Sequence record: CP053388.1
Length of the DNA: 64,000 nucleotides
Source of the DNA: Escherichia phage CMS-2020a
Strand: one strand, 5' to 3'
Both the position numbers and the translations under genes were made by a program. A model generated the notes under the pieces. It made no database searches and had not been told where the DNA came from. It saw only the letters and a program-made list of their open reading frames with translations. Every line of letters begins with the position of its first letter. Within the stretch, counting starts at the first letter, position 1. Below, one piece after another: positions 7,135-58,700 of the stretch.

Positions 7135-10100
7135 TCACAGACGGCCAATTCTTACTCGTAAGACGTTGTTATCGTCATAAACGTCAATCCGCTGACCATT
7201 TATAACCAATCGCCCATTGCCGCCGCTATTACCGTTGATCTCAAGCGTTCCATTTTTGCCGAACCGCCATCCAGATCTACCGCTAACAAAATTGGTAGAT
7301 TGCAGATCGCCTACTTTTGCATTGGTGATTGTGCCATCCTTGATATACGCTCCATTCATATAGGCGATACTGTTTTCGATAACAAATGGCGTTGTGATCT
7401 TCCCGTTAACAGAGTTGACCAAACCAAACCTGTCAGCCTGCACCAAAAACTGAGAAAGGCCAGTGGTGTCGATACCAAGCGCAATACCAGCAACATACTT
7501 CTGCCCTCCGCTCGTTGAAGTTTCCATTTTCAACGTCCACGCGGTTGACACTTTTTTGTTGGTATCAGCAATAGCTGTTGCCTGCTGTTGAATTGTCGCG
7601 GTATTTCCATCCACCTCTGCTTTCAGAGTATCGATTCGCCCACTCAGAGCATTATCTGCCTGCGTTCTCGCTGTCGTTTCAGTTGTTACCGCCGCGGAAA
7701 TGTTGGCTGCCGTTTGAGACTCTAAGTTTGTGATTTGAGTCGCCAATGCGGCATCTTGCTCTGTACGCGTTTTCGTTTCGGTTGCTACAGCCGCTTTAAT
7801 ATCCTCTTTGTATTGAGAGGTCAGCTTGGTGATCTGAGACGACAACGCCGAGTCAGCATCAGTTCGAGCCTGCGTTTCAACTGCAACGGCCGCACTAATA
7901 TCTTTCGCTGTCTGTGCTTTTAAACTTGAAACCTCTTTTGTTAAAGCGGTATCACCATCTGCACGAGCCGTTGTTTCTCTGGCAAGAGACGCCTCGAGAT
8001 CATTAGCTTTTGCTGTAAGAGACGTAATCTGGGTAGACAATGCACTATCGGCATCAGTCCTTGCTTTTGTCTCTACAGCAACCGCTGCGGCAATATCAGT
8101 TCCGGTTTGTGCTCGCAGGCTGTTAATTTCTCGTGAGAGCGCCTGGTCAGCACTTGCCCTGGCCTCCTGCTCCTGAGTGATGGCAGCGGATATATCACCG
8201 TCAACCTTTGACTGAAGCTGGTTTATTTGTTTGGCTAACGCAGAGTCCCCGCTTGCTCGAGCCTCCTGCTCACTACGTATTGCAGCAGAAATATCATCAT
8301 CAACCTTTGCCTGAAGTTGGGTGATCTGGCTTGCCAGAGCCGAATCTTCCGTTGCTCGGGCTTCTTGCTCTTCCTTAATAGCTGCGACGATATCGTTGCT
8401 TACTTTCGACTCAAGCTGAGTGATCTGTGTCGTCAGAGCTTCATCGGCAGATGTACGAGCCTCCTGCTCTGTACTAATCGCCGCGCTGATATCTCCTTCA
8501 AACTTAGATTGCAGCTGAGTGACACGCTTTGCCAACGCTTCATCGCCATCGGCACGAGCGGTGGACTCTTCCAGAATACTGGCCTTAATGTCTTCGCCAA
8601 TTTCTACGCGAATTTCCTCAACCTTCGTGGCTATTGCAGACATATCATCAGCAAAGGTTTTCTGTGTTGTTGCGATCTTCGCGTTATTGACCATCTGCTT
8701 GTGCTGGTCTTCATCTTGACGAAGAGCCAGGTCAATATTTGTTTTGGCTAACGCCTCAATGTTCGTAGTCAGTTCTGCACTGGCACGATCGACCTCTGCA
8801 ACCGTCTTTTTCATTTCTTCAACGGCAGCGGAGCTTTCCTCTACCGTTGACTGCAACACTTCCAGTTGTTTAGCGTTTGCAGCATCGCCTTCAACACGAG
8901 CCTCGCTTTCCTTAGCAATAAGAGCCGCCGCTTCATCTCTTGCAGCCTTTATTGCCTCGACTGTATTAGCGAGAGCTTTATCGTGTTCAGATACGGTGTT
9001 TTCGATTTCAACAATTGCAGCATCAGTAGCATCAATTTTTTCAAACGCTTCATTGACCTTGTCAATCGTTGCCGAAACCTCACCTTTAAGCTCGGTTTGT
9101 GCGTTCTCCAAAGCATCGCTACGCTCGTTGAATTTTATTTCAAAATCCGCGAGGTTATCGCTGAACTGCTTATCTAATTCAGCTATATCTTCCTTAACGT
9201 CGTTTACCGCCCCCTCCAAAGATTCGACGCTCTGGTTGATATGCTCATTTAACTCGTCAACTGCTTCTTGAGAGGCTTTGCTGTTGATGTCCTCAAGCAG
9301 AGCCTGACCAAGCTCGGAAGATGTAATTTTGCCAGTCAGGAACGACAGTACATCGCGAGTTGTCGCCTCTGTACCCAAGTTTGAGTTCGGAGGACTTAAC
9401 ATACCTCGCTTGTTCGATGCTCGAACCCAGTAATACCACGTTTCGCTATCCCCAAGACCAGCATGTGTAAAGGTGGTGCTTGCAGACTCTGCGATCAGTT
9501 TCGCCGTATCCAGATTGTTGGTCTGGGATGCGTAAACATTAATGTGATCAAGGTCTACCGAATCTGGATTAACCCAATTCAGTATCACATTACGATAGTC
9601 TCCAACGGCCGTTAATGACGTTGGGGAATCCGGCGGTGTCATTGTGCCCAACACCTGATAAACGGTACTGATAATCTCTGTTTTTTTACCGTTGAATGAA
9701 ACCGCATACAGCTGGAAGTCGTAGCGTCCATTCTCCGCGACATTAACGATTTCGTATTGCTCTTCGGTTACACGCGCCGATTGCCAGTTCGATACATTGT
9801 TTTCATCAGAACGTCGCCAACTGATCCAATACTCTGGAGATTTCCCTTCCCATGTTGCAGTCAGTTTTACTGACAGGTTGCCAGGGCTTGAGAGATAAGT
9901 CCCTTCGGTGATTTGCAAATTAGACGGCTTGGAGTAAGTCGGGTCCAATACCGTCGTATTCTGCGGGATAAGCGTTGCACCATTGTCGATTGCCTCATAT
10001 TTAGACGGATTGTTCTCAACAGCGGTGATGTCAAAGCTACCCGGCGTTTCCCCCTGCGCGATGTTAACGATGCGAACGCGCATAGGTTCGAGATCTGGTT

Positions 10101-31662: not shown

Positions 31663-32360
31663 GCAGCCATCTCCCCGGAAGAGATCTTCTCCGCATATGC
31701 CACAAATGCGTCTACCCCGCTTTCTCCCGTCATTTCTTCCATGTGGGCAAGCAAATCACCAACAACAATGGCAGAGCCAGCAGGGAGCGTTTTAAAGCCC
31801 AATACGTCGACAACACGTACTTCTTCCGCTGCAACTTCACGACTGATCTCGGTGTGTTCATCCTTCTGTCGTTTAGTTTCTTCGCCAAGATCGATAACTA
31901 GCGAGTCGGTGTCCATTTCTTCTGTCATACTGCCAACGAGAACATTCAACTCACGCTCTTCAAAGCCGAAAACCTCGATATCGTCCAGAACAAGCGACTC
32001 AAGCTCTTTCTGTAGCTTAATTGCATCGTAATCAATGCTGGCAAGTCGGTTATCTTCAAGGCGCTTCGCACGAACCTCGTCATCACTGAGATCATCGCGA
32101 ACAATAACCGGTACGCGCTCAAGTCCAGCAAAAATTGCAGCCTCACGGCGGCCGTGGCCAGTAATAATTACGTCGTTCTTATCGACCGTAATTGGCTGGT
32201 CAAATCCGCGCTTTTTAATGGCTGCGGCTAGATCTCGGATCTGCTGTTCATCATGCTTTTTGGCATTCATCTCATAGGGAATAAGATCTGCCGGGTCGCG
32301 ATATACGATTTCAAACTTTTTGGTCATTACATACGCTCCTTGTAGTAGTCGACCAGCCAT
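31659..32360 (-). CDS. ParB-like nuclease-domain protein
   Basis: ITGHGRREAAIFAG ParB/Srx-type motif. Confidence 0.65.
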   Translation of the reverse strand: MAGRLLQGAYVMTKKFEIVYRDPADLIPYEMNAKKHDEQQIRDLAAAIKKRGFDQPITVDKNDVIITGHGRREAAIFAGLERVPVIVRDDLSDDEVRAKRLEDNRLASIDYDAIKLQKELESLVLDDIEVFGFEERELNVLVGSMTEEMDTDSLVIDLGEETKRQKDEHTEISREVAAEEVRVVDVLGFKTLPAGSAIVVGDLLAHMEEMTGESGVDAFVAYAEKISSGEMAA

Positions 32361-33025
32361 ACCAGAGCCTCACCAGCGTTCTCCATTTCATTACCGGTGT
32401 TAATAGCCTGCTCTTTGATGATGTTTTTTATGGTTTCTGCAACACGATCTGACGCATCGAAAGTTACTTTGAAGCGCATGGTCTGATGTTCCGCACCCAC
32501 ACGTTCGGTTTTCTCTCGTTTGTCGGTATCGACAGGCTCATCACTACCACGAGACAACGCCTCCAGTGCTTCAAGGTCGATTGCCGCCTCTTTTGCTAAA
32601 ACCATCGAGATTTCGTCGTCATACGGGGCGATTTCAGACAGTTGATAGTCAAGTTCTGACTGAATTTCTTCAATGAAGCGTTGCAATGCGATTTGGTCGT
32701 CTTCACCGTATCGCTCGTTGTCCACCAGTGACATCTGTTTAGCTACGACATCGCTAATTTTGCCCACAGAAAGCACCGGAACCGTTGAAATTCCTTGCTC
32801 AATAGCAGCACGCCAGCGATGTTCGCCGCCGAGGATTTCAAAAAATCCATCTTCAAGTTCACGAGCCAAAATTGGCTTAAAAAAGCCCAATTTTTCGATA
32901 GAACCTTTCAGTTTTTCAAAATTCTGCGCACCAACCGAATTGGTGTTCCAGGTATTCGGGCGAAGGTTGGCAACATCAACCTGCAAAATCGTGATTTTTA
33001 CATCCATTTTATTGCTACAATCCAC
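32327..33025 (-). CDS. ParB-like nuclease-domain protein (second paralogue)
   Basis: ILGGEHRWRAAIEQG ParB/Srx-type motif. Confidence 0.65.
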   Translation of the reverse strand: MDCSNKMDVKITILQVDVANLRPNTWNTNSVGAQNFEKLKGSIEKLGFFKPILARELEDGFFEILGGEHRWRAAIEQGISTVPVLSVGKISDVVAKQMSLVDNERYGEDDQIALQRFIEEIQSELDYQLSEIAPYDDEISMVLAKEAAIDLEALEALSRGSDEPVDTDKREKTERVGAEHQTMRFKVTFDASDRVAETIKNIIKEQAINTGNEMENAGEALVWLVDYYKERM

Positions 33026-33045
33026 TAAGTAATCACTTACTTATT
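33025..33045. promoter_or_regulatory. motif B-type palindrome in divergent intergenic region
   Basis: ctaagtaatcacttacttatt between the ParB-like gene (-) and the helicase gene (+). Confidence 0.45.
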
Positions 33046-33089
33046 ATAATAGCCAAATAACATACAAAAGGCACTAAGGAAAGAGGTTT

Positions 33090-34649
33090 ATGACTGTTCG
33101 GATTGTATCTAACGCAGTAAATGCGCTTATTTCTGGCGCAGATGACAAGGTAAAGCAACTGGTGCAGCAAATGTTGAGCTACGAAGTCGAGACTGGCGAC
33201 TGGAAGGGCACAAGCACGATGTTCAACTGGAGTAAAAACTCGTTCCCTGCTGGCTTTGCCAAGCCTGTAGCGGCGAACTTGAACAAGGCGGGCATCAAAT
33301 GTGTTCATATCCGCAAAGACAAAGCCCCGGCGCTTGGTAAACCAAATCCGGCGGTTAACCCATTCCCATACAATCCTGATTATGCGTATCAGGATCAGAC
33401 TGTGGAAACACTGGTTCGAGAGGGAATGATGATTGCGCAGATCGCTACTGGTGGCGGGAAATCTAACGTTGCCTGCAAAGCAGCTGCACGTATCGGTCGA
33501 ATGACATTATTTTTAACAACTCGCTCTGTTCTGATGTTTCAAATGGCCGAAAACTTCCAGAGATCCATCGACTACCGCGCCGAAAATGGCGAACCGTGGT
33601 TAAAGGGCCAAAAGGTTGGAGTCATTGGCTCGGGTGAGTTCCAGGTATCACGACATATCAACGTCGCTACAGTTCAAACTCTGGCAAGTTTCCTTGAAGA
33701 ACCACCACGCGATGCAACACCAGATAAAAAGAGCTACCATCTCAAACGTCGGGAGTTGGTGAAACGCTTCCTTTCAAGTGTGTCTCTGCTTATTCTGGAA
33801 GAAGCGCATGAGTCTTCAGGCTCTAATTTCTATGACATTGCCAGATTATGTGTGAACGCAGACTATCGTCTGGCGCTTACAGCCACGCCGTTCATGAAGG
33901 ATTCGACGGAAGCCAACATGCGCCTGATGGCGGTGGCCGGGCGAATTGAAATTAAAGTCACAGAAAAGTACCTGATTGATCGAGGCATTCTGGCAAAGCC
34001 GTACTTCCTTTATCATAAAGTTGCCTACAAGCCAGACGAGGCCAGAATCAAGGCCGAACTTGCCAACAAACACCTCAATTTTAGAGTTGGTATGAGCACC
34101 GCCTACCAAAAGGCTTATCAGTTGGGGATCGTGTATAATTTGGGACGTAACGAGGCCATAGTGCGCGAGGCATTGCTTTATAAGCAACATTCACTCAACT
34201 GCATGACTCTGGTTCGTCTTAAACGCCACGGGCAAATCCTGATGGAGATGATGAAGGAGTCAGGTCTTAAAGTTGATTTCATCTATGGGGAATCTAACCA
34301 GACGACAAGGCAAGCAAAGCTGAATAGTTTAGCGTCTGGTGAAATAGATGTTTTAATAGGCTCGACTATTCTGGATGTTGGTGTTGATGTGCCAAGCGTT
34401 GGTGCGGTCATTCTTGCTGGTGGTGGGAAAGCAGAAGTTGAAATGAGACAGCGTGTCGGTCGTGGCTTACGAGCCAAAAAAAATCAGGCAAACGTGTGTT
34501 TTATCACTGATTTCATTGACATTAGCAACAAATACCTGTTGTCTCACTCTTATGAGCGAAAACACATCATCGACACCACACCTGGCTTTGCAGAAGGTGT
34601 ATTGCCTATTGATGGAGCATTCGATTTTGGAGTTCTGAAACGAGATTAG
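33090..34649 (+). CDS. SF2 (DEAD/DEAH-type) helicase
   Basis: Walker A ATGGGKS, DExH-like LEEAHE, C-terminal helicase domain motifs. Confidence 0.8.
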   Translation: MTVRIVSNAVNALISGADDKVKQLVQQMLSYEVETGDWKGTSTMFNWSKNSFPAGFAKPVAANLNKAGIKCVHIRKDKAPALGKPNPAVNPFPYNPDYAYQDQTVETLVREGMMIAQIATGGGKSNVACKAAARIGRMTLFLTTRSVLMFQMAENFQRSIDYRAENGEPWLKGQKVGVIGSGEFQVSRHINVATVQTLASFLEEPPRDATPDKKSYHLKRRELVKRFLSSVSLLILEEAHESSGSNFYDIARLCVNADYRLALTATPFMKDSTEANMRLMAVAGRIEIKVTEKYLIDRGILAKPYFLYHKVAYKPDEARIKAELANKHLNFRVGMSTAYQKAYQLGIVYNLGRNEAIVREALLYKQHSLNCMTLVRLKRHGQILMEMMKESGLKVDFIYGESNQTTRQAKLNSLASGEIDVLIGSTILDVGVDVPSVGAVILAGGGKAEVEMRQRVGRGLRAKKNQANVCFITDFIDISNKYLLSHSYERKHIIDTTPGFAEGVLPIDGAFDFGVLKRD

Positions 34650-34651
34650 TT

Positions 34652-34930
34652 ATGAGTGAAAAGAAAACAACTTACTGTCAGGTAGCATTGTCTGATAAGG
34701 CCAATGACAAACTTGGAAAGTTTCAAGTGAAACTAAAAGAAAAAAATATCAAAATGTCTAAGGCTGAAGTCATAAATACCATTCTGGAACAATTGACAAT
34801 GGCCGACTTTGACAAGGTTATATCTTCTGTCGGGGCTTCCGCTAAGACTCGTGAGAAAATCATGCGTATCTATGAGAACTCTAATATGACAAAGGAAGAT
34901 CTCGAAACGCTATTAAGCAGATTAAAATAA
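34652..34930 (+). CDS. hypothetical protein
   Basis: 92-aa ORF, Lys-rich. Confidence 0.45.
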   Translation: MSEKKTTYCQVALSDKANDKLGKFQVKLKEKNIKMSKAEVINTILEQLTMADFDKVISSVGASAKTREKIMRIYENSNMTKEDLETLLSRLK

Positions 34931-42130: not shown

Positions 42131-42512
42131 GCATGTGTGTTATTTAGTTGTTTTGTTATACCTGAAAATGAGTTGTTTATATGGTTGTGTAACGCAACGG
42201 GAGCGATTTTGAGCGTGTGTTTTTGTTGGTAGTGTGTTGGGTCGTCTGTGGTGAAAATTGGACGCTGTGGCGCTGTCTGCTGCGTAGAGTTACGGGTATA
42301 AGAAGTGATGTGTGAAAACGTCAATTTTTTAGACCAAATCGGGTGAAAGCGTTGACGTTTCGTTGATCTGTTATTTAGTTGTTTTCTTATTTGTATAAAC
42401 AACCATAACCTATTGATATTTAAAGATATGATTGCAGCTATGGAAGGGGAGTAGTGGCGATCAACGGATTCTTATAGAAAAGAATCAAATTGTGACCGCC
42501 ATTATCAATGTT

Positions 42513-43247
42513 TTACATAGTTTTGTTTAGCAGAGAGAGAATTTCATCACTAATTTCACTCGCCTGTTTTATAGCCAATGCAGTTACCTCTTCTATGGTT
42601 GGTGACTGTTGATGCTCATGTTTGGTTTCAGTTATGACAATGTGTTCTTCACCTGAATTTGCGCATAGTGCCGCATTGACGATAAGGTTTGAGTAAGAAT
42701 TTAGCAGAGCACTGTTGATAAACGCTTTCACGGTATTACTGTCTGCACCAAATACATCTTTTCTGACCGCTTCAGCCTCACAGCGAACCCCTGCAGCAAC
42801 ATCGTGAAGAACATGTATGGCCTTGGGGCTTGTTTGTTCACAGTACTCAATCATTATTGTCGAATTGTTCTGTTCAACAAACGATCTGATGCCTGACGAT
42901 TCACCCATAGCATCGAAGGCAGCGTGACCCGCACTGGTAGAGATATCTTCATAGAGTTCTTCATCGCTATCTTTTTCTTCAGGTGTCGAGGTGTCTTCAT
43001 CGTCGTAATAGATATTGCCTTTAATCAGTGTTTTGGACACTTGATATAAACAATAAGAAACGAGATTTAAGCATTGGATTTTAGCTGTATTGTCCTTTGT
43101 CGCCTCGCTCTTCAGTTCTTTCGCTTCTTCAGTAAGGCTGTTGATAAGACTTTGTATTTTTTCCAACGCGTTAGGCGCACACTCCGCGTTGTCCATAAAG
43201 AATTTATAACCAGTCCCAGGGATTTCTAAACTTTTCAACTTTTTCAT
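42513..43247 (-). CDS. hypothetical protein
   Basis: 244-aa acidic ORF. Confidence 0.5.
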   Translation of the reverse strand: MKKLKSLEIPGTGYKFFMDNAECAPNALEKIQSLINSLTEEAKELKSEATKDNTAKIQCLNLVSYCLYQVSKTLIKGNIYYDDEDTSTPEEKDSDEELYEDISTSAGHAAFDAMGESSGIRSFVEQNNSTIMIEYCEQTSPKAIHVLHDVAAGVRCEAEAVRKDVFGADSNTVKAFINSALLNSYSNLIVNAALCANSGEEHIVITETKHEHQQSPTIEEVTALAIKQASEISDEILSLLNKTM

Positions 43248-43292
43248 TTCTTTGATAATCCTAAAAACAAACTACCAATGCTTTAATATCTG

Positions 43293-43592
43293 TTACCAGT
43301 TCCAGCACTCAAGCCCTTCAACGACTGGTGCTCCACAATCAAAATGTACAGAGTCAAAGCCTACATCAAGTACTTTCTGAATGTTAGCAATCGCGCCTTC
43401 GGATATACCATATCGACGCAAGTCGTCTTTCCAGACATCATCCTGTAACCCGGCGTGAACAATACAACCGCCATCAATTTGTGAAACCCAATCCAGCTCA
43501 TTGCTTGCGATCATGAATCGGCGAGCATCTTCCTCTGATGTATGAGATGAACTGATCAATGCCACCTGGTAGGCTTGGGTAATGTTCAACAT
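43293..43592 (-). CDS. hypothetical protein
   Basis: 99 aa; GGAG RBS; two motif A copies upstream. Confidence 0.5.
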   Translation of the reverse strand: MLNITQAYQVALISSSHTSEEDARRFMIASNELDWVSQIDGGCIVHAGLQDDVWKDDLRRYGISEGAIANIQKVLDVGFDSVHFDCGAPVVEGLECWNW

Positions 43593-43604
43593 TTCAACTA
43601 CTCC

Positions 43605-43629
43605 AAAACAAGTTGTTTTCTTATGTGGC
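43605..43629. promoter_or_regulatory. motif A
   Basis: aaaacaagttgttttcttatgtggc. Confidence 0.6.
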
Positions 43630-43646
43630 TTATTATCTCAATCAAC

Positions 43647-43675
43647 AAAAGGTAGAAAACAAATTGTTTTAGGGC
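43647..43675. promoter_or_regulatory. motif A variant
   Basis: aaaaggtagaaaacaaattgttttagggc; candidate -10 GATAAT lies between the two copies. Confidence 0.5.
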
Positions 43676-43704
43676 TTGTGTAAATCAGGAGGGATTGTGT
43701 CTAT

Positions 43705-43736
43705 ATGAAAATGCCCGGCGTGTTGCCGGGCATTGT
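43705..43736 (-). terminator. metG terminator hairpin
   Basis: aatgcccggc..gccgggcatt just after the metG stop. Confidence 0.5.
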
Positions 43737-43753
43737 GAAAAATGGTTGTTTAG

Positions 43754-45787
43754 TTACTTAACTTGGTGGCCTGGTTTAGCACCAGCATCCGGGCTTAACA
43801 GGAAGATATCTTTTCCGCCAGGGCCAGCAGCCATCACCATGCCTTCGGAGATACCGAAGCGCATTTTACGCGGTGCCAGGTTAGCCACCATAATGGTGTG
43901 ACGACCAATCAGTGCCTGTGGATCTGGATAAGCGGAACGAATGCCTGAGAAGACATTACGTTTTTCTCCGCCGAGATCCAGTGTCAGGCGCAGCAGTTTG
44001 TCAGAACCTTCGACAAACTCCGCGTTTTCAATCAGCGCCACACGCAGGTCAACTTTGGCGAAGTCGTCAAAGGTGATGGTTTCCTGAATCGGGGCGTCAG
44101 CCAGTGGGCCAGTTACCGGTGCAGCTGTGGCTTTCACTTCTTCTTTGGATGCTTCCACCAGTGCTTCCACCTGTTTCATATCGATACGGTTATACAGTGC
44201 CTTGAACGGATTCACTTTATGGCCCAGCAGCGGTTGCTGGATACCATCCCAGGTCAGTTCTGTATTCAGGAATGCTTCTGCACGTTCAGTCAGTTTCGGC
44301 AGTACCGGTTTCAGGTACGTCATCAGCACGCGGAACAGGTTAATGCCCATAGAGCAAATCGCCTGCAGATCGGCATCGCGTCCTTCCTGCTTCGCCACCA
44401 CCCACGGAGCCTGTTCATCAACATAGCGGTTAGCCAGGTCAGCCAGTGCCATGATTTCACGGATAGCTTTGCCAAATTCGCGGCTTTCCCATGCTTCGCC
44501 AATCACTTCAGCGGCATCAGTAAAGGTTTTGTACAGTTGCGGGTCAGCCAGTTCGCTTGCCAGCACGCCGTCAAAACGCTTGTTGATAAAGCCTGCATTA
44601 CGGGAGGCCAGGTTAACCACTTTGTTCACGATATCGGCATTCACGCGCTGAACGAAATCTTCCAGGTTGAGATCGATATCATCAATGCGCGAAGAGAGTT
44701 TCGCAGTGTAGTAGTAACGCAGGCTGTCGGCGTCAAAATGATTCAGCCAGGTGCTGGCTTTAATAAAGGTGCCGCGAGACTTGGACATCTTCGCACCGTT
44801 CACCGTCACATAGCCATGAACAAACAGGTTGGTCGGCTTGCGGAAGTTGCTGCCTTCTAGCATGGCAGGCCAGAACAGGCTGTGGAAGTAAACGATATCT
44901 TTGCCGATGAAGTGGTACAGCTCGGCGGTGGAGTCTTTCTTCCAGTATTCGTCGAAGCTGGTAGTGTCGCCGCGTTTGTCGCACAGATTCTTGAAGGAAC
45001 CCATGTAGCCAATCGGCGCGTCCAGCCAGACGTAGAAGTATTTGCCCGGTGCGTTCGGAATTTCAAAACCGAAGTAAGGTGCGTCACGGGAGATATCCCA
45101 CTGTTGCAGGCCAGATTCAAACCACTCCTGCATTTTGTTTGCCACCTGCTCCTGCAACGCACCGCTGCGGGTCCATGCCTGCAACATTTCGCTGAAAGAA
45201 GGCAGATCAAAGAAGAAGTGTTCGGAATCACGCATTACCGGTGTAGCGCCAGAAACTACCGATTTCGGCTCGATCAGTTCCGTCGGGCTGTATGTCGCGC
45301 CGCAGACTTCACAGTTATCGCCGTATTGATCCGGCGCTTTACATTTCGGGCATGTGCCTTTTACAAAACGGTCCGGCAGGAACATGCCTTTTTCCGGGTC
45401 GTACAGCTGAGAGATGGTGCGGTTTTTAATAAAACCGTTCTCTTTCAGGCGAGTGTAGATAAGCTCGGACAACTGACGGTTCTCTTCGCTGTGCGTCGAG
45501 TGATAGTTGTCATAGCTGATGTTAAAGCCTGCGAAATCAGTCTGATGTTCCTGACTCATTTCGCCAATCATCTGCTCCGGTGTGATACCAAGCTGCTGTG
45601 CTTTCAGCATGATCGGCGTACCGTGGGCATCGTCGGCACAGATGAAATTAACCTCGTGGCCGCGCATTCGCTGGTAACGAACCCAGACATCAGCCTGGAT
45701 GTGCTCCAGCATATGGCCGAGGTGGATTGAGCCGTTAGCGTACGGCAGCGCGCACGTCACCAGAATTTTCTTCGCGACTTGGGTCAT
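43754..45787 (-). CDS. metG: methionyl-tRNA synthetase
   Basis: Start [25 protein letters not shown] (HIGH motif), KMSKS motif, C-terminal tRNA-binding domain; matches enterobacterial MetG as recalled from memory. Confidence 0.97.
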
Positions 45788-45944
45788 AGTAGGCATTACT
45801 TCTTTGTAGTGAAAAGGGGCTTGATAGTAACAAAATGGCCTTATGTCTGCCATGTGATAACAGCATTTCTCATAAATGATTAAATGTCGTAGCTGGAGTA
45901 CACTACAAGGCGACAATTGCGCAAATTAAAATAAAGGAGACGGG

Positions 45945-47045
45945 ATGAGCGAGTCCAAATCGCCGGATGCCCTGAGAGCAATGGTAGCCGGTACGCTGGC
46001 TAATTTTCAGCACCCAACCCTGAAACACAACCTGACTACGCTTAAAGCGTTACACCATGTTGCGTTGATGGATGACACACTGCATGTCGAACTAATCATG
46101 CCTTTCGTGTGGAATAAGCCTTTTGAAGACCTGAAAGAGCAATGTAGTGGTGATCTGCTCCGTATCACTGGCGCAAAGGCTATTGACTGGAAGCTGTCGT
46201 ACAACATTGCCACGCTTAAGCGTGTCAAAAACCAACCAGGCATTAATGGCGTTAAGAACATTATCGCCGTCAGCTCAGGCAAGGGCGGCGTGGGTAAATC
46301 CTCCACGGCGGTAAACCTGGCACTGGCGTTGGCTGCTGAAGGTGCGAAAGTTGGTATTTTGGATGCCGATATCTATGGTCCATCAATTCCAACCATGCTG
46401 GGCGCGGAAAACCAACGTCCAACCTCACCTGACGGTACTCACATGGCACCTATCATGTCTCATGGCCTGGCAACCAACTCTATTGGTTATCTGGTCACCG
46501 ACGACAATGCAATGGTGTGGCGTGGACCGATGGCCAGCAAGGCGCTGATGCAGATGTTGCAGGAAACATTGTGGCCTGATCTGGACTATCTTGTTCTCGA
46601 TATGCCGCCGGGCACTGGTGATATTCAGTTGACGCTGGCGCAGAACATTCCTGTAACTGGTGCTGTTGTGGTAACTACGCCGCAAGACATCGCGCTGATC
46701 GATGCGAAGAAAGGCATTGTGATGTTCGAAAAAGTCGAAGTGCCGGTACTGGGTATCGTTGAAAACATGAGTGTGCATATTTGCAGTAACTGCGGTCATC
46801 ACGAGCCAATTTTTGGCACCGGTGGCGCACAGAAACTGGCCGAGAAATACAACACGCAGTTGTTAGGCCAAATGCCACTTCATATCTCTCTTCGTGAAGA
46901 TCTGGATAACGGAACACCAACCGTTATTAGTCGTCCAGATAGCGAATTTACAGCTATTTATCGTGACCTCGCAGATCGCGTTGCCGCCCAAATGTATTGG
47001 CAAGGTGAAGTAATACCTGGCGAAATCGCATTCCGCGCAGTGTGA
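45945..47045 (+). CDS. apbC: Fe-S cluster carrier ATPase ApbC/Mrp
   Basis: P-loop SGKGGVGKSS and CxxC motif; divergent from metG with AAGGAG RBS, the native enterobacterial arrangement. Confidence 0.95.
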   Translation: MSESKSPDALRAMVAGTLANFQHPTLKHNLTTLKALHHVALMDDTLHVELIMPFVWNKPFEDLKEQCSGDLLRITGAKAIDWKLSYNIATLKRVKNQPGINGVKNIIAVSSGKGGVGKSSTAVNLALALAAEGAKVGILDADIYGPSIPTMLGAENQRPTSPDGTHMAPIMSHGLATNSIGYLVTDDNAMVWRGPMASKALMQMLQETLWPDLDYLVLDMPPGTGDIQLTLAQNIPVTGAVVVTTPQDIALIDAKKGIVMFEKVEVPVLGIVENMSVHICSNCGHHEPIFGTGGAQKLAEKYNTQLLGQMPLHISLREDLDNGTPTVISRPDSEFTAIYRDLADRVAAQMYWQGEVIPGEIAFRAV

Positions 47046-47072
47046 TAAAAAGGCGGTGCATTGCACCGCCTA
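47046..47072. terminator. hairpin terminator at the apbC / UmuD'-like junction
   Basis: aaaaa + ggcggtgcattgcaccgcc; U-tract is on the minus-strand side. Confidence 0.55.
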
Positions 47073-47082
47073 ATCAGTTCTC

Positions 47083-47472
47083 CTACATCACGGGACAATC
47101 ATCAAACTCGCCACTTCTTGCGTCGTTGATAATGTGAGTGATCACACCAAACACGGCATTGCTGCCCGTGCATCCATCGTCATCCTTTGGCAATGCTTCC
47201 TTCTTACCGGTTCTTAAATCCTCCAGATGCTGACGTGGGTACTTCCGGTATCTTTTTACGCGATATTCCCCATCCAGAGCGCATACAAGCAGAGAACCAT
47301 CAACCGGGGTAAGTGAGGAATCGACCACCAGCAATGCACCCTGTAATATTCCCTCACGATGATGACTATCAGCTGCCCTCATGAAGTAGGTCGCTGAAGG
47401 ATGTCTAATTATCTGCTGATCAAGAGAAATACGGCTCTCAACATAATCCGCCGCAGGAGAAGGGAAGCCCAT
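47083..47472 (-). CDS. UmuD'-like S24 peptidase-family protein (N-terminally pre-truncated, HumD-like)
   Basis: GFPSPAADYVESRISLDQQIIRHPSATYF aligns with UmuD from its autocleavage-site region onward; no umuC. Confidence 0.85.
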   Translation of the reverse strand: MGFPSPAADYVESRISLDQQIIRHPSATYFMRAADSHHREGILQGALLVVDSSLTPVDGSLLVCALDGEYRVKRYRKYPRQHLEDLRTGKKEALPKDDDGCTGSNAVFGVITHIINDARSGEFDDCPVM

Positions 47473-47488
47473 AATACTCGCCTCTTAA

Positions 47489-47508
47489 TACTGTATACAC
47501 ATACAGTA
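47489..47508. promoter_or_regulatory. LexA (SOS) box overlapping the UmuD'-like promoter
   Basis: tactgtatacacatacagta = CTGT-N8-ACAG; -35 TTCAAA and -10 TATACT on minus strand. Confidence 0.85.
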
Positions 47509-47803
47509 TATATTGAAGCTATATATTTTTGAACTCTATCTCTTAAAAAAGATGTTAATAAGATGCTAACTATTGAAAGGCATAAATATATACAATTCAA
47601 ACAAACGTTATTTTTAACAAATTTTTTCTTCCCATTGACTTTTTCGAACGCCTTGTCCGGTCTAAAGTGCGCAGAAGTCACTTTTTCCTTCCTGAGTTAT
47701 CCACAGGCTTATGCACTTGCATGAAAAATCTATTCACACTATCTTAATTCGCAAGACACTGATGTTGCAGTATTGAGGGTATGTTGGGTTAAAAATAGAC
47801 ATT

Positions 47804-47836
47804 AAAAAGCCCAGTTGACTAGGCTGGGCTTTTTAA
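47804..47836. terminator. bidirectional terminator hairpin
   Basis: aaaaagcccagttgactaggctgggcttttt. Confidence 0.65.
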
Positions 47837-48229
47837 AAGGAAACAGAGTTTGCGGCTCTGTTCCTGAGCCATAAGTATCTGGCGACTGAGCTAAGATTAA
47901 CCGAATGTACTGGATTCATCAAGAAACGTTGAGTGGTCATACTAGGTAATAATGACCATTTACTAAACATCGTTGTTCTCAAAGAAGATTTAAGTCCAGG
48001 TTTTTGGTGACTCTAAAACCTTACCTTAACTCGAAATCGTGCCGTAAGTATCTGGCGACTACAGATATTGCAACTGCAAAGGCAAGCTCAAAGGTATTTG
48101 CAGCTAGGTGCGATAAAACTAAGTGAGGCCTATAGTGCTTAACTTACTTTTCAAAATCGTGCCGCCTATGTTCGCAATCATCGAAGCGATCATTGAGTAC
48201 GTCAACCAGCGCCCATAATGCTAGTTGTT

Positions 48230-48257
48230 ACCGGCCCCATCCAAATGGGGCCATTTT
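48230..48257 (+). terminator. plus-strand rho-independent terminator
   Basis: ggccccatccaaatggggcc followed by atttt. Confidence 0.55.
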
Positions 48258-48267
48258 ATTGTATTGA

Positions 48268-48900
48268 CTACATACTTTCTGATCTAATTGAGTTGTTCAC
48301 TGCTCTGGCAATCTTCTCCCGCAATTGCTGCGCTCCGTGGTACTGAACCGCAATATCCCGCAACTCGTTCACCAGTTCTCTAATCTGGTGATCTTTAAGC
48401 TCATTATTTGGGTGATGGGTAACAACTCTGGTTAATTCACCCTTGTCTTTTGCTCTTACGTATGCAGCTCTTGTGCATTCGACCCATGTATTACCGCCTA
48501 CATTAACTTCGTAGATTAGGCTGGACTTATCTGTCAATTCGGAACAAATACGGGCCGTGGTCTGGCAACTAGAGCATTCGCAGTTATCGCGGAAACCGTG
48601 ATCTACCGGTCGAGAAAGAGGTTTAACTTTTTCATCCAACTTCATCACAGCATCGTGATAAGCGTTCCAGCCGTCATCTTTACCAAGTTGATAAATCTCT
48701 GAAGGCTCCATGTAGTCTATATCGCAACCTTCTTCATCCGATCTATCTGGTCGCTTCCCTGGTAATCGCTCATAAAAACGTTTTCTGTCTCGACGTTCGG
48801 CTCTCAGAGCTAACGCAAGAAGTTGCTCAAGCGAGGTATTTGCACCAGCAATAATTTCATTGAGAATATCTTCTGTGAGATCTTTCGCTACCGTGCTCAT
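48268..48900 (-). CDS. hypothetical protein
   Basis: 210-aa ORF. Confidence 0.5.
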   Translation of the reverse strand: MSTVAKDLTEDILNEIIAGANTSLEQLLALALRAERRDRKRFYERLPGKRPDRSDEEGCDIDYMEPSEIYQLGKDDGWNAYHDAVMKLDEKVKPLSRPVDHGFRDNCECSSCQTTARICSELTDKSSLIYEVNVGGNTWVECTRAAYVRAKDKGELTRVVTHHPNNELKDHQIRELVNELRDIAVQYHGAQQLREKIARAVNNSIRSESM

Positions 48901-49280
48901 TTATCTCTCTCAGTATGTTGCGATGGCGTAAATTTGACGACATCAAATATTTTGGATGGCATCAACTTTATCCGCGAGCTTAGTTCGGCTCTTCTCTGTA
49001 ATGCGGTTAATAATGTTTTCGTTCTGACGCCTTCGTGTATCCTCATCCCTGGCACAAGAACTACATCGCAGGGGAGATGCTCAGGTGACAAATCATTTTG
49101 GGCATCGCTAATCAGTCGTGTAATCTCTCTTTCAAGCCGACCGCCTAGCTCTGTTTTAGTGCAATGTTCTGACCAATCGCCAGCCTCAAGCAGCGCGAGA
49201 ATGCTTAAAATATCGTCCAATAGAACGGTAGTATTATCGACTTCCTTCTGAAACTCACCGGCTACTGATTTATGCATCAT
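48897..49280 (-). CDS. hypothetical protein
   Basis: 127-aa ORF, coupled to neighbours. Confidence 0.45.
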   Translation of the reverse strand: MMHKSVAGEFQKEVDNTTVLLDDILSILALLEAGDWSEHCTKTELGGRLEREITRLISDAQNDLSPEHLPCDVVLVPGMRIHEGVRTKTLLTALQRRAELSSRIKLMPSKIFDVVKFTPSQHTERDK

Positions 49281-49930
49281 TCGTCATCCTCATCCGAGTC
49301 ATCCTCATCACAGGATGAGAGTAGTGGGTTAGTCATTCGCCCTACTTGAGTGGCGTAGCCACGCCGACAGAGATTGCGCAGCACACTGTATATTTCGAAC
49401 ATCTCGGTTCGTTCATCGCCAACATCAAGCTCAGATGCTATAGCGTGGCATTCAGTCGCGAGAGCCGATATTTTCTGAAATAACTCTGCATTATTCACTG
49501 TTCGACTCCTGCGGCGTTCTGGTAGTGACATCCAGTGTGTGACATTGCTAATCAGACCATATTCATTAGTTTGAGGATGGTTGCCGTTAGCGTCTCCGTA
49601 TTTAAGACTCTCCATAAAGCCATAATGCCTATCACCATTAACGCTCACAAAGCCGTAATAAGCAGGTATAACGCCGATCTCACACGTAACCAGTAAAGGA
49701 AAACTAGTTCTCCAATTTAGCTCGCCAATTACAGGCATTCGCTCACTACAGCTTATCCAACCATCCTTAGATGCGGCTGTATTGGCATAGGCCTTACGGT
49801 GCTTCTGTAGCTCTGCTGCAATCGCTCTCACGACTTCAACTGGTGCTCTTGCAGCAAACTCAATGTTGGTGATCAGCTCATTAAGATATTTCTCGCTTGG
49901 GTAGCATTTCTTATTGTTAACGGTGGTCAT
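49277..49930 (-). CDS. DUF551-like phage early protein
   Basis: GWISCSERMP ... VTHWMSLPERRR pattern. Confidence 0.55.
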   Translation of the reverse strand: MTTVNNKKCYPSEKYLNELITNIEFAARAPVEVVRAIAAELQKHRKAYANTAASKDGWISCSERMPVIGELNWRTSFPLLVTCEIGVIPAYYGFVSVNGDRHYGFMESLKYGDANGNHPQTNEYGLISNVTHWMSLPERRRSRTVNNAELFQKISALATECHAIASELDVGDERTEMFEIYSVLRNLCRRGYATQVGRMTNPLLSSCDEDDSDEDDE

Positions 49931-50115
49931 TAGGCAGCTCTCTCAACAACAAGCAATTCGTCGTAGTCATAATCAGTTTCGGAACCATCCGTACCGAACA
50001 GAGTCACTTTGTCATTTTCCATCCAAAAAGATTTAACCGCACATTGTTGACCTTTAGATGTTATGAGCACATCACCAGGGATTACGTCTTCAGCGCGAAC
50101 CTCTAGTGTTCTCAT
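49930..50115 (-). CDS. hypothetical small protein
   Basis: 61-aa ORF. Confidence 0.35.
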   Translation of the reverse strand: MRTLEVRAEDVIPGDVLITSKGQQCAVKSFWMENDKVTLFGTDGSETDYDYDELLVVERAA

Positions 50116-50642
50116 CGTGCTGCCCCCTCTTTGGTGAAAATGCCTGCTGCAATGCTGTTTATGATGCTGTCAGTGCATGGAGTAGAAAGCTGGGCATCTC
50201 CAGCAATTTTCATGACCTCAACATCCGCATATCGAATACCGAGGTGTATCAGACCGGCTATACCTGACTTAAGTCGAACATTTTCCATAAACAGATCTTT
50301 TTCCCGCTGTTTAGCGCCTTCCAACTCCATCGACAATTTTTCCAACTGCTCTTTATGCTTCTTGTATTCCTGATACGCGTGCCAAGACTGACCTTTGCGC
50401 ACACTATCAGTGATATCAGCAACCTGCTCTGGTGTTAGCGTGGTCAGTGGCTGTGCTGGAAAAATCATCACTTGCCCGGCATCCCAATCAAAACCCGCCT
50501 GAATTGACTGAACCTCAACTGATGGTGTTGAACCGATGCGACCAGGCGAATGAACAACGATCGTTACATCCATATCGCGACGATGGCTGTGGTTGTTGGA
50601 CAAAATACGATTCACCAACTCAGAAAATTTGGATAATTTCAT
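50112..50642 (-). CDS. hypothetical protein (start set at MKLSKF)
   Basis: ATG overlaps stop of upstream gene (ATGA). Confidence 0.45.
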
Positions 50643-50962
50643 GCTGATCTCTCTTTCTCTCCCCGGATAATTCTGTTGCACACATCCACACACTCGTCGC
50701 AGATGAAAACGGCGTCCCCAGCAATTAACTTTTTGACGGCGTACTGGGATTTGTTGCAGAAGCTGCAACAAAGTGTTCGCCTGACTGATAAGGATGGAGC
50801 GCCAGATGTCAGCCGCTCCATATCGTTCTTGCGACGCAATATCACACGGCTGAACTCAACCAGTTTCTCCGGGGATATCTCCTCCTCCGTAGCGAGCGTC
50901 TCTAGTCGTTCGAGTATGTTGAAGGCTTTTTCTTGGGTAATAGCAGAGTGCGATGTGGTCAT
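50639..50962 (-). CDS. ClpX-type C4 zinc-finger domain protein
   Basis: [35 protein letters not shown] closely parallels the ClpX N-terminal zinc-binding domain. Confidence 0.6.
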
Positions 50963-51360
50963 TTTCTTTCACCTTCAATGTTCGTGGCGCTGGCACGATT
51001 GTCCTTGCGAAGAAGAGCGGCTATGCGCTTACTTCCATCCGAGATAACGCCCTCGTAATACTCACGCTGCTCGTTGAGTTTTGATTTTGCCAACTCCAGT
51101 TGTTTTGTTAGTTCCGCAATACGGCAAACATCGTTGATACGCGTTTCCTCTAATGCGTTGATCTCATCCAGTAGTGCCAGCACGGTTTCTGGTCCGGCCA
51201 GAAATTTGAAGGCGTTGAGGGCATCAATATCAACACCGCTATCTTTAAGTTCCTGTTCGCATATCAGATCATCATCAACTGGCAACATTAACAGGCGTTC
51301 CATTGCCGGAATTGCACGCTCTGCCGCCTCACGCAGTGCCTGATAGTCAATCTTGCTCAC
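50959..51360 (-). CDS. hypothetical coiled-coil protein (Ea22-like?)
   Basis: 133-aa ORF. Confidence 0.4.
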
Positions 51361-51857
51361 TGGATGACTCCTTTACGAAGCTGTTCAGCAATACTTACGC
51401 ATATCTCTGCGCCTCTAATCAGCCCCGGAACGTTCTTGTTTGGCCCAACTTCACCATCAACAAAATCAATCATCGCGTTACGAGCCATATCCACGCCCTG
51501 CGCACGTACTTCAGCCAGAAAAGCATCGGTGGCTGGAGTCTCCGTCAATTCGCTAACCCAATTATCTCCGTGTTCCTCGGCACACATCGCATCGAATGCT
51601 CGCTCAGATTCTTTCAGGGCTGCATTCTCCGCCGCTAATGCGTCTCTTTGCGCCAGCAACTTCTCAATTTCGGCAGCCATGTAGTAACCAACCATAGCGA
51701 AGACGGCAAAAGAGTTATCTGCCTCATCAGGCGACACTGAGGCCATTAGCAGGCCATCGTAAAAATCGTGACTCCCATTGGTGATCGCCACCGCATAGGA
51801 GTCGTGGTTCTCGCGCTTGTGAATGAGAACTACGGGATTTTCGATTTTGTTACTCAT
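51357..51857 (-). CDS. hypothetical protein
   Basis: 166-aa ORF; motif A variant upstream. Confidence 0.5.
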   Translation of the reverse strand: MSNKIENPVVLIHKRENHDSYAVAITNGSHDFYDGLLMASVSPDEADNSFAVFAMVGYYMAAEIEKLLAQRDALAAENAALKESERAFDAMCAEEHGDNWVSELTETPATDAFLAEVRAQGVDMARNAMIDFVDGEVGPNKNVPGLIRGAEICVSIAEQLRKGVIQ

Positions 51858-53121: not shown

Positions 53122-53142
53122 CTAAGTAAGTATTTACCTATC
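53122..53142. promoter_or_regulatory. motif B palindrome
   Basis: ctaagtaagtatttacctatc at the MTase gene stop. Confidence 0.5.
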
Positions 53143-54826
53143 ATTTAACGCGTTTGAAAACGTATACGCTGACTGTGATCCCTGTGTCTTCAAACTCGTT
53201 GGTAAACGACTTCCCTCTGGCATAAACGTAATTATCCATCGTCATCCAGTCCAGTATTGGCGCAGTGCCCGGCAATACTGCTACAAGACGCCCGCCGACT
53301 TTCAGATGCCCCAGCGCAGCCAGCGTGTGCTCTCTATGACGACCAAGCGAGTACGGCGGGTTCATAACGATTTTGTCGAACTGATAACCTACGTTGTCCT
53401 CAGACCACTTTATGAAGTCGCAGCAAATCGTGTTCGTATACCCTTTTCCGCGCAGGATATCAGCGAAGAGAGGTGCGATTTCTATGCAGGTAACATCTTC
53501 CAGATCGGCGTTGATATAGGCCAGAAGATCCCCACGTCCGGCTTGAGGCTCCAGCAGCTTCTCACCAGACTTCAATTCAGTGGCTCTGGCAACGTACTCA
53601 GCAATCAAGCGTGGGGTAGGGTAGAACTGGTGTGATTTTGTATCCGGTATTAATCCGGTAGCCACAATCGTATTTAGCGTATGGCCGATCTCATACGGGA
53701 ACTGCCAGTGTTTTTTCTCCTGCACGCCGCCAATGAAGCTCAGTGTGCGCTCAAGCTCTTCCACCTGCGACTTCTGGAGAGCTGAATCAGAGAAGTACCA
53801 TACGCCTTTGTCTTTGCTCAATCGCCCGTCACGAAGCGCAGTGCGAACCGGCACGGAGATCGTCTTCTGGATTAACCCGAACTGCTTTGGTGCCCGTGTT
53901 TTTGGCGCAGTTCGGCATGGCGCGGGGATTGCAGCAGGCATACTGTAAGCCAGCACCTCATTCAACTTCCAGGCCACGTCAGGATGTATTTCAAAGTGAA
54001 CGTTGCCGTTCTTGAACATCTTCACGCGCATCAGATTTCCATCGACGTTCATCCAGTCACCGGTCTGGCAGTCGTTTGCTCGATACGCAGCTGATAGCAC
54101 CTCAGCAGTGCGGTTGATGGTAATAAATTCTTTGTGCGCGAAGAAATGAAGCAAGACACGCAGATCGTCGATGTAGTCCTCTTTGCGATAGTTCACGCTA
54201 ACGCTGTCCCGCCAGAAATCAGAAATGCAGTCAGCGATTATCAGACGCTCGCTGAAACCGTTTGTCTTATTTGTCTTGTGCGCAGGACTCAGCGCCTTAA
54301 ACAAGCCATACACGCGCTCAGAGAGATATTTGTGCCTGTCATTCAGCAAATTAAGCATCGTGGGTATGACCGTTTCTGCTTTGAACTCCGGTACACCAAC
54401 GAACTCTTTAACCTTCATCTGGTAGCCGGTTCTGTCAGTTTTGATGACTTCCTGTTTGCCCTCTATAAACTGCTCGCGCCACTCATCTCGACGGGAAGCT
54501 GGCATGATCAGCAAAACGTTAGTCATGTCCGTGACCTTCCTCCAGTACTCGGCCCAAATATTCTGTTTCACCCATTCCAGATCGACTTTATCCAACCAAC
54601 CTCGATTTAAACGCGAGCGATCTTCATCTGGTCGATGGTTTAGTCTCAGCAGGCGATTAATCATGTTGTGGCGTTCGTCGCCATAAACGAAGTCGTGTAC
54701 CTGATACATGAAGGCGATCTCTTTCTCGCACTCGGCCACAATTTCGTGGATGACGTTCATTTCCTGCCGATAGTCGATAGCAGTGTTTGAGTTGGCATCG
54801 TCGATGATGGAAAGGGCTGTATTCAT
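53141..54826 (-). CDS. DNA methyltransferase (NPPY class) with ~380-aa N-terminal domain of unknown function
   Basis: C-terminal FYPTP, EPQAGRGDL (SAM-binding) and IVMNPPY motifs. Confidence 0.7.
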   Translation of the reverse strand: MNTALSIIDDANSNTAIDYRQEMNVIHEIVAECEKEIAFMYQVHDFVYGDERHNMINRLLRLNHRPDEDRSRLNRGWLDKVDLEWVKQNIWAEYWRKVTDMTNVLLIMPASRRDEWREQFIEGKQEVIKTDRTGYQMKVKEFVGVPEFKAETVIPTMLNLLNDRHKYLSERVYGLFKALSPAHKTNKTNGFSERLIIADCISDFWRDSVSVNYRKEDYIDDLRVLLHFFAHKEFITINRTAEVLSAAYRANDCQTGDWMNVDGNLMRVKMFKNGNVHFEIHPDVAWKLNEVLAYSMPAAIPAPCRTAPKTRAPKQFGLIQKTISVPVRTALRDGRLSKDKGVWYFSDSALQKSQVEELERTLSFIGGVQEKKHWQFPYEIGHTLNTIVATGLIPDTKSHQFYPTPRLIAEYVARATELKSGEKLLEPQAGRGDLLAYINADLEDVTCIEIAPLFADILRGKGYTNTICCDFIKWSEDNVGYQFDKIVMNPPYSLGRHREHTLAALGHLKVGGRLVAVLPGTAPILDWMTMDNYVYARGKSFTNEFEDTGITVSVYVFKRVK

Positions 54827-58089: not shown

Positions 58090-58110
58090 GATAGGTAAAC
58101 ACTTACTTAC
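58090..58110. promoter_or_regulatory. motif B palindrome
   Basis: gataggtaaacacttacttac at RNase H stop. Confidence 0.5.
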
Positions 58111-58700
58111 TATTTATTATAAACAAAACCAATATCTTTCTTGTGAGGCATATCTGCTGCTGAAAAAGCTGCGATCTTCGCGAGTCGATCACATATTTCA
58201 TTTTCACGATGCCCGGCGTGACCTTTAACCCACTTCCAGCGAACATTATGTCGACTTGCGGCCTCATCCAGACGCTTCCACAGATCAACATTCTTTACCG
58301 GTTTTTTGTCAGAAGTCATCCATCCATTGCGTTTCCACCATTTCATCCACTGTGTCATGCCGTTTTTCAGATACTGGCTATCAGAGTGCAAAATAACGTT
58401 GCATGGATATTTCAAACGCTCCAGCCCGATAAGTGCCCCCATCATCTCCATGCGGTTATTGGTGGTGCTATGAAAACCATCTGAGAACTCGCGTTCCTCT
58501 CCACGATACTGAAGAACGATACCGTAACCGCCCGGGCCACCCGGATTTTTAAGGCAAGAGCCATCACTGAAGATTTTCACGGTTTTAAGCTGGGGATTGA
58601 ACTCTACGACAGGCGTTGTGGGATTGGTGCGGGGAGAATTTTTGTTTTTGGCTTTTTTGCGAGTTTTCGCTTGCGATCGGGCTGGTGTCTTCGTCGTCAT
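58110..58700 (-). CDS. ribonuclease HI
   Basis: [41 protein letters not shown] motifs; start MTTKTPARS with AGGAG RBS. Confidence 0.85.

Follow-up and report, generated by a model that had tools for sequence, protein, structure and literature searches.

The 64,000-nucleotide stretch of Escherichia phage CMS-2020a analyzed here (CP053388.1; the window, for short) is part of a phage-plasmid of Escherichia and Shigella belonging to the SSU5 supergroup and of the pLF82/Cyrano type, and it carries, amid its phage genes, a full-length methionyl-tRNA synthetase gene, metG, next to a divergently transcribed apbC (mrp) gene. Considered as a whole, the reading that we find quite probable is that metG-apbC forms an insulated unit of an SSU5-type phage-plasmid, that it serves the lysogenic conversion of the host, and that it derives from an old capture followed by gene conversion of metG. 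Both the phage-plasmid and its metG cargo have been described before, with annotations in hundreds of public records, and the novelty of the finding is low for that reason. The mosaic detail of the module may be new, and the points of remaining interest are this pattern of concerted evolution and the role of a very strongly conserved ApbC.

To establish the nature of the element, the window was compared with Cyrano (pLF82; OV696614), an SSU5-like phage-plasmid for which virion formation was shown experimentally and which is maintained at ~5.5 copies per cell (PMC9928086). Window positions 1-25000 matched Cyrano 28125-4544 (97.5% identity, 88% coverage), a match that covers the genes for the major capsid protein, the tape measure protein, tail protein J and the tail fibre, and positions 39001-64000 matched Cyrano 97786-73758 (97.8% identity, 94% coverage). 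The Cyrano segment encoding ParB, a ParB-like nuclease and a UvsW-like helicase fell at window 31868-34902 with 97.2% identity, such that siphovirus structural genes and plasmid partition genes reside on one molecule. Since the two Cyrano arcs are matched in circular order, the window runs round the circular map of a single SSU5-like phage-plasmid, elements of the pLF82/Cyrano type being circular plasmids of roughly 108 kb that also make siphovirus particles. Cyrano and its relatives PhiR41_1, CMS-2020a, pECOH89/pB20 and p09EL50 are the closest known group. Cyrano is collinear with the window at 97-98% identity and shares the gene order DUF5983, metG, apbC, humD (CYRAN_101 to CYRAN_98); it differs by a few per cent of nucleotides, by some swapped accessory genes and by a D565A substitution that is private to the methionyl-tRNA synthetase (MetRS) of the window. 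No chromosomal flank or junction repeat was found in the window, in which no exhaustive integrase scan was made, and a search of its 64 kb for tRNA genes returned none.

The metG-apbC region comprises the following features.

43293-43592, minus strand: DUF5983-family gene (CYRAN_101 homologue), the left phage-plasmid neighbour and left edge of the hotspot, with a 43%-identical homologue in pHCM2
43605-43620 and 43655-43671: two copies of the 16-bp palindrome AAAACAANTTGTTTTC (motif A), upstream of the DUF5983 gene
43703-43734, minus strand: rho-independent metG terminator with a 10-bp stem, a 5-nt loop and a U-rich tail
43754-45787, minus strand: metG, methionyl-tRNA synthetase, 677 amino acids plus stop, full-length
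45788-45944: divergent intergenic region of 157 bp, presumably with the metG and apbC promoters
45945-47045, plus strand: apbC (mrp), predicted iron-sulfur cluster carrier P-loop NTPase, 366 amino acids plus stop, full-length
47051-47071, minus strand: hairpin between apbC and humD, -17.9 kcal/mol
47083-47472, minus strand: humD, a UmuD'-like S24 peptidase and translesion-polymerase subunit (HumD equivalog, 222 bits)
43593-51356: variable accessory hotspot with metG-apbC, humD and lambdoid ea22/eaa-like genes

The gene calls and hairpins agreed with the limits of 43690-47082 that a first-pass annotation of the sequence had placed around the pair, and bore out its description of a full-length metG and a divergent apbC some 160 bp apart with phage genes on both sides. 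The GC content of the insert (0.51) exceeded that of the 10 kb to its left (0.43) and to its right (0.455). Homology to the chromosomal metG-mrp(apbC) locus of Enterobacteriaceae, which has the same divergent arrangement, the same protein families and a terminator after metG, ended at the two stop codons (metG, 43754; apbC, ~47041-47046). Unlike that locus, the window has none of the chromosomal neighbours yehE and yehF/DUF4132 beside the pair, its apbC is three codons shorter and 82% identical, and its intergenic region is 157 bp long as against 131 bp. Because these neighbours are missing and both flanks belong to one element, the pair is not the edge of a prophage inserted beside metG, as had been noted at first pass. 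The two insert junctions had no direct repeat of at least 7 bp in common, again as anticipated. The hairpin at 43710-43734 (-19.1 kcal/mol, z = -6.75), followed by UUUUCAUAU, lies 20 nt past the metG stop codon, in a position analogous to that of chromosomal metG terminators and with no sequence homology to them; what had been called the native metG terminator is thus a terminator by structure and position, and not the chromosomal one by descent. The designation of the intergenic region as native fared worse, this region being only ~68% identical to that of E. coli and alignable to it over just 47 bp next to metG. At the other end of the unit, a run of U follows the hairpin at 47051-47071 on the minus strand, for which reason it is read as a putative terminator of humD that would shield apbC from antisense read-through.

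The same arrangement was found in many independent records. The 6-kb stretch from 42500 to 48500 of the window was present at full length and 97-99% identity on plasmids in 114 of the 5,426 complete E. coli genomes, and the 3.5-kb metG-apbC segment in 202 PLSDB plasmids from E. coli, Shigella (six plasmids) and E. albertii. These PLSDB records are complete plasmids, mostly of 95-128 kb among those listed. Three phage records, Cyrano, PhiR41_1 and CMS-2020a, carry the segment as well. Together with the collinearity to Cyrano, the presence of the pair on more than 200 plasmids upholds the option preferred at first pass, namely a phage or phage-plasmid that captured a host segment. A metG search returned a match in all 5,426 complete E. 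coli genomes, at 5,424 chromosomal and 219 plasmid places, the latter equivalent to ~4% of the genomes; the chromosomal second copy whose presence the first-pass annotation had suggested looking for was thus recovered. Chromosomal metG was 93.4-94.3% identical to the metG of the window across these genomes. The phage-plasmid metG-apbC pair always accompanies the chromosomal copy and never takes its place.

Both products are predicted to be members of the families suggested by their names. The metG product has the hallmarks of a class I methionyl-tRNA synthetase: HLGH at residue 22, KMSKS at residue 333, the CPKC and CEVC knuckles at residues 146 and 159, a score of 1019 bits against the NCBIfam MetRS equivalog NF001100 (cut-off 587), a C-terminal tRNA-binding (dimerisation) domain (TIGR00399, 163 bits), and E. 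coli MetRS structures 1f4l and 1qqt as PDB matches (E = 0). The protein is 98.7% identical to K-12 MetG and 99.3% identical to E. albertii MetG, and corresponds to the common phage-plasmid MetRS WP_001755492 with the addition of D565A, located in the linker before the C-terminal domain. Extra aminoacyl-tRNA synthetases borne on plasmids or transposons and giving resistance to inhibitors are exemplified by the isoleucyl-tRNA synthetases MupA and MupB which, like the metG of the window, are encoded on mobile elements beside a housekeeping gene. MupA and MupB, however, are highly diverged, inhibitor-insensitive paralogues, whereas the MetRS of the window is 99% identical to that of the host. Resistance by target replacement was considered on the MupA example and found unlikely because of this near-identity, the MupA and MupB models scoring only 33 bits.

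The apbC product is a predicted ApbC/Mrp iron-sulfur carrier of the Mrp/NBP35 group of P-loop NTPases, and not a MinD protein. It displays a deviant Walker A motif (GKGGVGKS) at residue 112 and CSNC at residue 280, its closest solved structure is the iron-sulfur cluster carrier protein 8zkc in the PDB (E = 5e-236), and it scored 759 bits against the ApbC equivalog NF008669 (cut-off 348) and 57 bits against bacterial MinD (cut-off 213). The Cyrano homologue CYRAN_99 (15446-16546 of locus L001) is named 'Septum site-determining protein MinD' both in the deposited annotation and in Table 1 of PMC9928086, a label that these family scores do not support. An AAGGAG ribosome-binding site lies 6 nt ahead of the apbC start codon.

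Sequence variation among 13 phage-plasmid copies of the module indicated that neither gene is disrupted and that purifying selection on both is strong. Polymorphic codons with synonymous changes only outnumbered those with an amino-acid change 244 to 14 in metG and 108 to 5 in apbC, and the ratio of nonsynonymous to synonymous divergence (dN/dS) was 0.01-0.03 for both genes in all comparisons. The ApbC protein was identical in 10 of the 13 copies, whose DNA differs by 1-5%. Nucleotide diversity among the 13 copies fell to ~0.01 at window 45704-46136, a stretch that takes in the intergenic region and the start of each gene, while the remainder of metG ranged over 0.03-0.07 and apbC reached 0.05; this minimum suggests either strong constraint on a regulatory core or a recent sweep.

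To trace the history of the module, the 13 phage-plasmid copies were compared with five E. coli chromosomal alleles by means of runs of diagnostic sites and neighbour-joining trees, and its three segments (metG, intergenic region, apbC) were matched separately against 80 loci plus Salmonella Infantis and K. aerogenes. The segments proved to differ widely in their distance from Escherichia chromosomes, to which the plasmid copies were 93-96% identical in metG, ~68% in the intergenic region and ~82% in apbC. Synonymous divergence (dS) between the window and K-12 was 0.295 in metG, below the 0.34 that separates K-12 from E. albertii, and ~1.5 in apbC, above the 1.18 by which K-12 and Citrobacter stand apart. 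Sites that distinguish plasmid from chromosomal copies numbered 42 in metG (2%), 41 in the intergenic region (26%) and 155 in apbC (14%). Plasmid apbC was ~82% identical to every sampled chromosome, be it of E. coli, E. albertii, Citrobacter, Salmonella (80.6%), Klebsiella, Enterobacter or others. The intergenic region was 94-100% identical among the 13 copies; it aligned to E. coli or E. albertii over only the 47 bp next to metG, and to Citrobacter or Salmonella types with 75-78% identity over ~135 bp (Citrobacter, 77% over 137 bp). The two trees disagreed, plasmid apbC branching outside all sampled chromosomes and plasmid metG nesting within Escherichia.

Within metG, the distinguishing sites crowded at the extreme 3' end, where the flanking homology stops, and none occurred between 44522 and 45200. 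Chromosome-type states were clustered in individual copies. All 12 such states in the metG of pB20 were adjacent among the 42 sites (probability ~3e-9), as were eight in the copy designated Ealb2014C, while PhiR41_1 and FMU073332 each showed several chromosome-type tracts. One of these, in PhiR41_1, was a 296-bp run identical to the chromosomal metG of CFT073 in an allele that is 94-96% identical overall to E. coli chromosomal alleles. The simplest reading of these patterns would combine an old capture with later, repeated conversion of metG. The pair would have come long ago from an enterobacterium other than E. coli; since then the metG of the resident chromosome would have overwritten the plasmid metG again and again through RecA-type gene conversion, and apbC and the intergenic region would have kept their old sequence because they had diverged too far to recombine. 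On balance, and with only slightly better than even confidence, we favor the view that phage-plasmid metG evolves in concert with the chromosomes that it visits, being overwritten patch by patch, and that apbC and the promoter region may represent an old lineage specific to phage-plasmids.

A second, divergent form of the module was encountered in E. coli assemblies (P0074, loci L101-L103; GCA_016987495, GCA_021861085 and GCA_016989725; genes at 5845-9101). This variant has the same DUF5983 neighbour and likewise encodes a 366-residue ApbC, with MSDSKSP at the N-terminus in place of the MSESKSP of the window. Its apbC DNA is 76% identical to that of the window and 72-73% to chromosomes, its ApbC protein is 81% identical to that of the window, and its metG is 96.9% identical to that of K-12, a contrast between the two genes even sharper than in the first form of the module. 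Genes for an IS605-family TnpB and an Rpn/Transposase_31 protein lie on its left side, and BOF-domain and Hok genes on its right.

The search for a donor also took in MetRS relatives from one genome per species; among the matches listed there were none from E. coli, Salmonella or other Escherichia species. A parallel search with the ApbC protein could not resolve the donor because, at the 90% level of clustering, the plasmid protein is lumped with those of E. coli, Salmonella and Citrobacter; it was this search that revealed the variant lineage. Shared polymorphism was no more discriminating: at 136 of 141 biallelic sites in metG, the plasmid base was also one of the pair found on chromosomes, and the apbC control behaved similarly (49 of 62). 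The idea that imports from plasmids inflate the diversity of chromosomal metG was likewise abandoned, metG being no outlier relative to its chromosomal neighbour between K-12 and CFT073 (96.3% identity in metG, 97.0% in apbC).

The metG-apbC pair is the constant part of a variable hotspot. SSU5 and pHCM2 of S. Typhi share with the window the phage-plasmid backbone, including structural genes (81% identity to those of SSU5), DUF4942, RNase H, ParB and the UvsW-like helicase, and differ from it in having no metG, apbC or humD. By protein synteny, the homologues of the window genes at 43293-43592 and 51357-51857 bracket the same hotspot in pHCM2; they are 7.8 kb apart in the window and ~1.2 kb apart in pHCM2, where the intervening 1.2-kb stretch carries ydfZ. 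This small host-type gene at the equivalent position encodes a putative selenium delivery protein (NZ_CP029889.1; 12866-13069 of locus L003). Across members carrying the module, the left neighbour of metG-apbC was a DUF5983 or a DUF1380 gene. On the right, humD was the neighbour in most copies and not in all, the alternatives including humD with a DNA polymerase III theta subunit gene and a type I restriction-modification system, a deacetylase gene, ea-like genes and der. The theta homologue and the type I restriction-modification system after humD were seen in loci L094 and L096. The humD gene of the window is ~85% identical to that of the P1-group phage-plasmids P1, D6, RCS47 and SJ46, and is therefore an accessory gene common to two unrelated phage-plasmid families. 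In pZ1323HEC0016-2 (NZ_CP148383.1, 78123-79595; 5199-6449 of locus L088), the place of humD directly after apbC is taken by der (EngA), which encodes a ribosome-biogenesis GTPase. This der has a 99.3%-identical copy on two E. marmotae plasmids, is only ~91% identical to the chromosomal der of E. coli, and is the third host translation-related gene captured at this hotspot.

Judged from its sequence, the metG-apbC unit fits the pattern of a 'moron': it has a regulatory region of its own, terminators on both sides, a foreign composition and no copy of motif A. The terminators, the GC content of 0.51 against 0.43-0.455 and the lack of the unit in SSU5 and pHCM2 were all observed, while the scan for a consensus promoter gave none. 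In published RNA sequencing of strain LF82, the ApbC homologue is listed as a moron with expression 9-fold above the prophage background, MetRS stands at ~16 as compared to 5-7 in silent neighbours, and HumD is high (PMC9928086). The literature on pLF82, pHCM2, pECOH89, SSU5 and phage-plasmids in general yielded no mention of metG. An aminoacyl-tRNA synthetase, which had been flagged as unusual cargo, is nevertheless not without precedent, as a phage-plasmid-borne metG is cited in PMC12452169. According to that secondary account, the phage-plasmid metG of Shigella sonnei promotes antimicrobial persistence, favoring persister or tolerant cells under antibiotics, and its expression gives rise to a subpopulation predisposed to acquire cephalosporin resistance (Tam et al. 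2024, medRxiv 10.1101/2024.10.27.24316207). The S. sonnei element, pWPMR2, resembles the window in that it is described second-hand as having a second, variable metG (PMC12452169), and a survey preprint identifies the element as pWPMR2, places it in the SSU5 supergroup and reports it also from E. coli CC131, CC23 and CC73 (bioRxiv 10.1101/2025.09.12.675607). We infer that the most likely selective value of the module is lysogenic conversion of host translation and iron-sulfur physiology. Each lysogen would gain a second, essentially wild-type MetRS and a distinct ApbC at plasmid dosage, and these additional proteins would alter host translation and iron-sulfur physiology, hence persistence.

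Several observations weigh against one part or another of this reading. The metG of the window itself has only scattered chromosome-type sites and no clear tract, and the proposed gene conversion draws on 13 copies and five alleles, simple runs of sites and neighbour-joining trees. No apbC donor above 82.5% identity emerged from the sampled chromosomes, a set without E. fergusonii, E. marmotae and E. ruysiae. Scanning the 157-bp intergenic region for the sigma-70 consensus yielded no match at the scan threshold. Phage-plasmid and host MetRS alleles differ by only 1-5 residues, and the sole near-fixed difference from E. coli alleles, S151A, is also found in E. albertii; a distinctive biochemical property of the phage-plasmid enzyme is therefore not evident. 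The MetRS transcript is low in LF82, where metG was not called a moron (PMC9928086), which leaves an effect of dosage in ordinary growth unproven. Finally, the persistence phenotype comes by way of a secondary citation (PMC12452169).

Alternatively, the module might serve the phage rather than the lysogen, with MetRS charging initiator and elongator Met-tRNA and the iron-sulfur carrier supporting the lytic burst of translation and the maturation of phage enzymes or, in another form of the proposal, with the module countering host or competitor systems that target the charging of Met-tRNA. The orientation of metG, which is that of the surrounding leftward early-region genes, speaks for such a role, as do the many DNA-metabolism enzymes encoded by this type of element (PMC12928451). 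With so little MetRS expression in the lysogen before induction, the gene could still be one that induction switches on, and the ribosome-assembly GTPase gene der, which related elements carry at this hotspot, is a hint that translation is a common theme. The terminators, however, insulate the unit, inside which the operator motif of the element is not found; apbC is transcribed in the lysogen as a moron; SSU5, pHCM2 and Klebsiella relatives without the module are nonetheless viable phages or plasmids; and the published phenotype, as far as the secondary account goes, concerns the lysogen. We thus consider a primarily lytic function unlikely.

A neutral reading, in which the pair has no selective effect and persists because the phage-plasmid backbone that carries it is successful, would be in keeping with the miscellany gathered by the hotspot (ydfZ in pHCM2, humD, ea22-like genes, der, restriction-modification genes) and with a MetRS nearly the same as that of the host. 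A neutral duplicate of 3.3 kb should, however, gain frameshifts and nonsynonymous changes, whereas all 13 copies were full length and their polymorphic codons comprised 352 with synonymous changes only against 19 with amino-acid changes, counts that already indicate a dN/dS below 1 on plasmid-only branches. Moreover, the ApbC protein stays the same across copies 1-5% apart in DNA, the unit is kept while both of its neighbours vary, and the older divergent lineage also has both genes intact. Neutrality is accordingly very improbable in our estimation. An artefact or one-off event, that is an assembly chimera at metG, a plasmid-chromosome cointegrate or a prophage beside chromosomal metG, has practically no standing left: although a 94%-identical chromosomal paralogue in the host could confuse assemblers and in one case, that of plasmid ESBL242 (KP792123), a public record is indeed broken within metG, three phage records and upward of 200 complete circular plasmids, sequenced in many laboratories and on a variety of platforms, have the same junctions, chromosomal homology stops at the stop codons with yehE and yehF/DUF4132 not present, plasmid metG is a separate allele 93-94% identical to that of the host, and motif A of the element occurs on both flanks. 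The recurrence of the arrangement in 114 of 5,426 genomes, 202 PLSDB plasmids and the phage records excludes the chimera and the cointegrate that the first-pass annotation had kept among its options. As for ESBL242 (NZ_KP792123.1), its 'complete' record starts inside the 3' end of metG with 284 bp matching window 43600-43883 and holds neither the remainder of metG nor apbC and humD, probably because the metG paralogue on the chromosome of its host, MG1655, broke the assembly.

The module is of interest for its cargo, an aminoacyl-tRNA synthetase being an unusual one for a temperate phage-plasmid. The extra metG of pWPMR2 has been tied, in the secondary descriptions, to antibiotic persistence and to lineages evolving resistance, so that spotting the module in new genomes has surveillance value. 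For annotation, a metG-apbC pair amid phage genes in Escherichia or Shigella is to be read as this phage-plasmid and not as a misassembly. Should the mosaic hold up, it would offer a tractable natural system in which to study conversion between a mobile element and an essential gene. In that case an essential housekeeping gene would have a partner for recombination that travels between hosts on a virus, and the phage-plasmid would go on producing chimeric MetRS alleles; these could account for the 'highly variable' metG associated with persistence and might in principle return to chromosomes.

Motif A, the 16-bp palindrome present twice beside the DUF5983 gene, gave 20 strand-hits at ~12 sites of the window as against 0.29 expected by chance. 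The sites (29449, 29474, 35901, 38820, 39584, 40487, 40971, 43605, 43656, 51930, 56470 and 57199) fall between genes in that half of the element which holds the early and accessory functions, and motif A is probably the operator of a dimeric regulator encoded by the element itself. They lie on both sides of the metG-apbC insert and not inside it; the statement made at first pass that both flanks carry this motif was thus accurate (43605 and 43656 on the left; 51930, 56470 and 57199 on the right). A partly palindromic 22-nt repeat resembling TAAGTAA..ACTTAC also occurs on both sides of the insert, at 33026-33047, 53123-53144 and 58092-58113, and may be what the first-pass annotation referred to as motif B.

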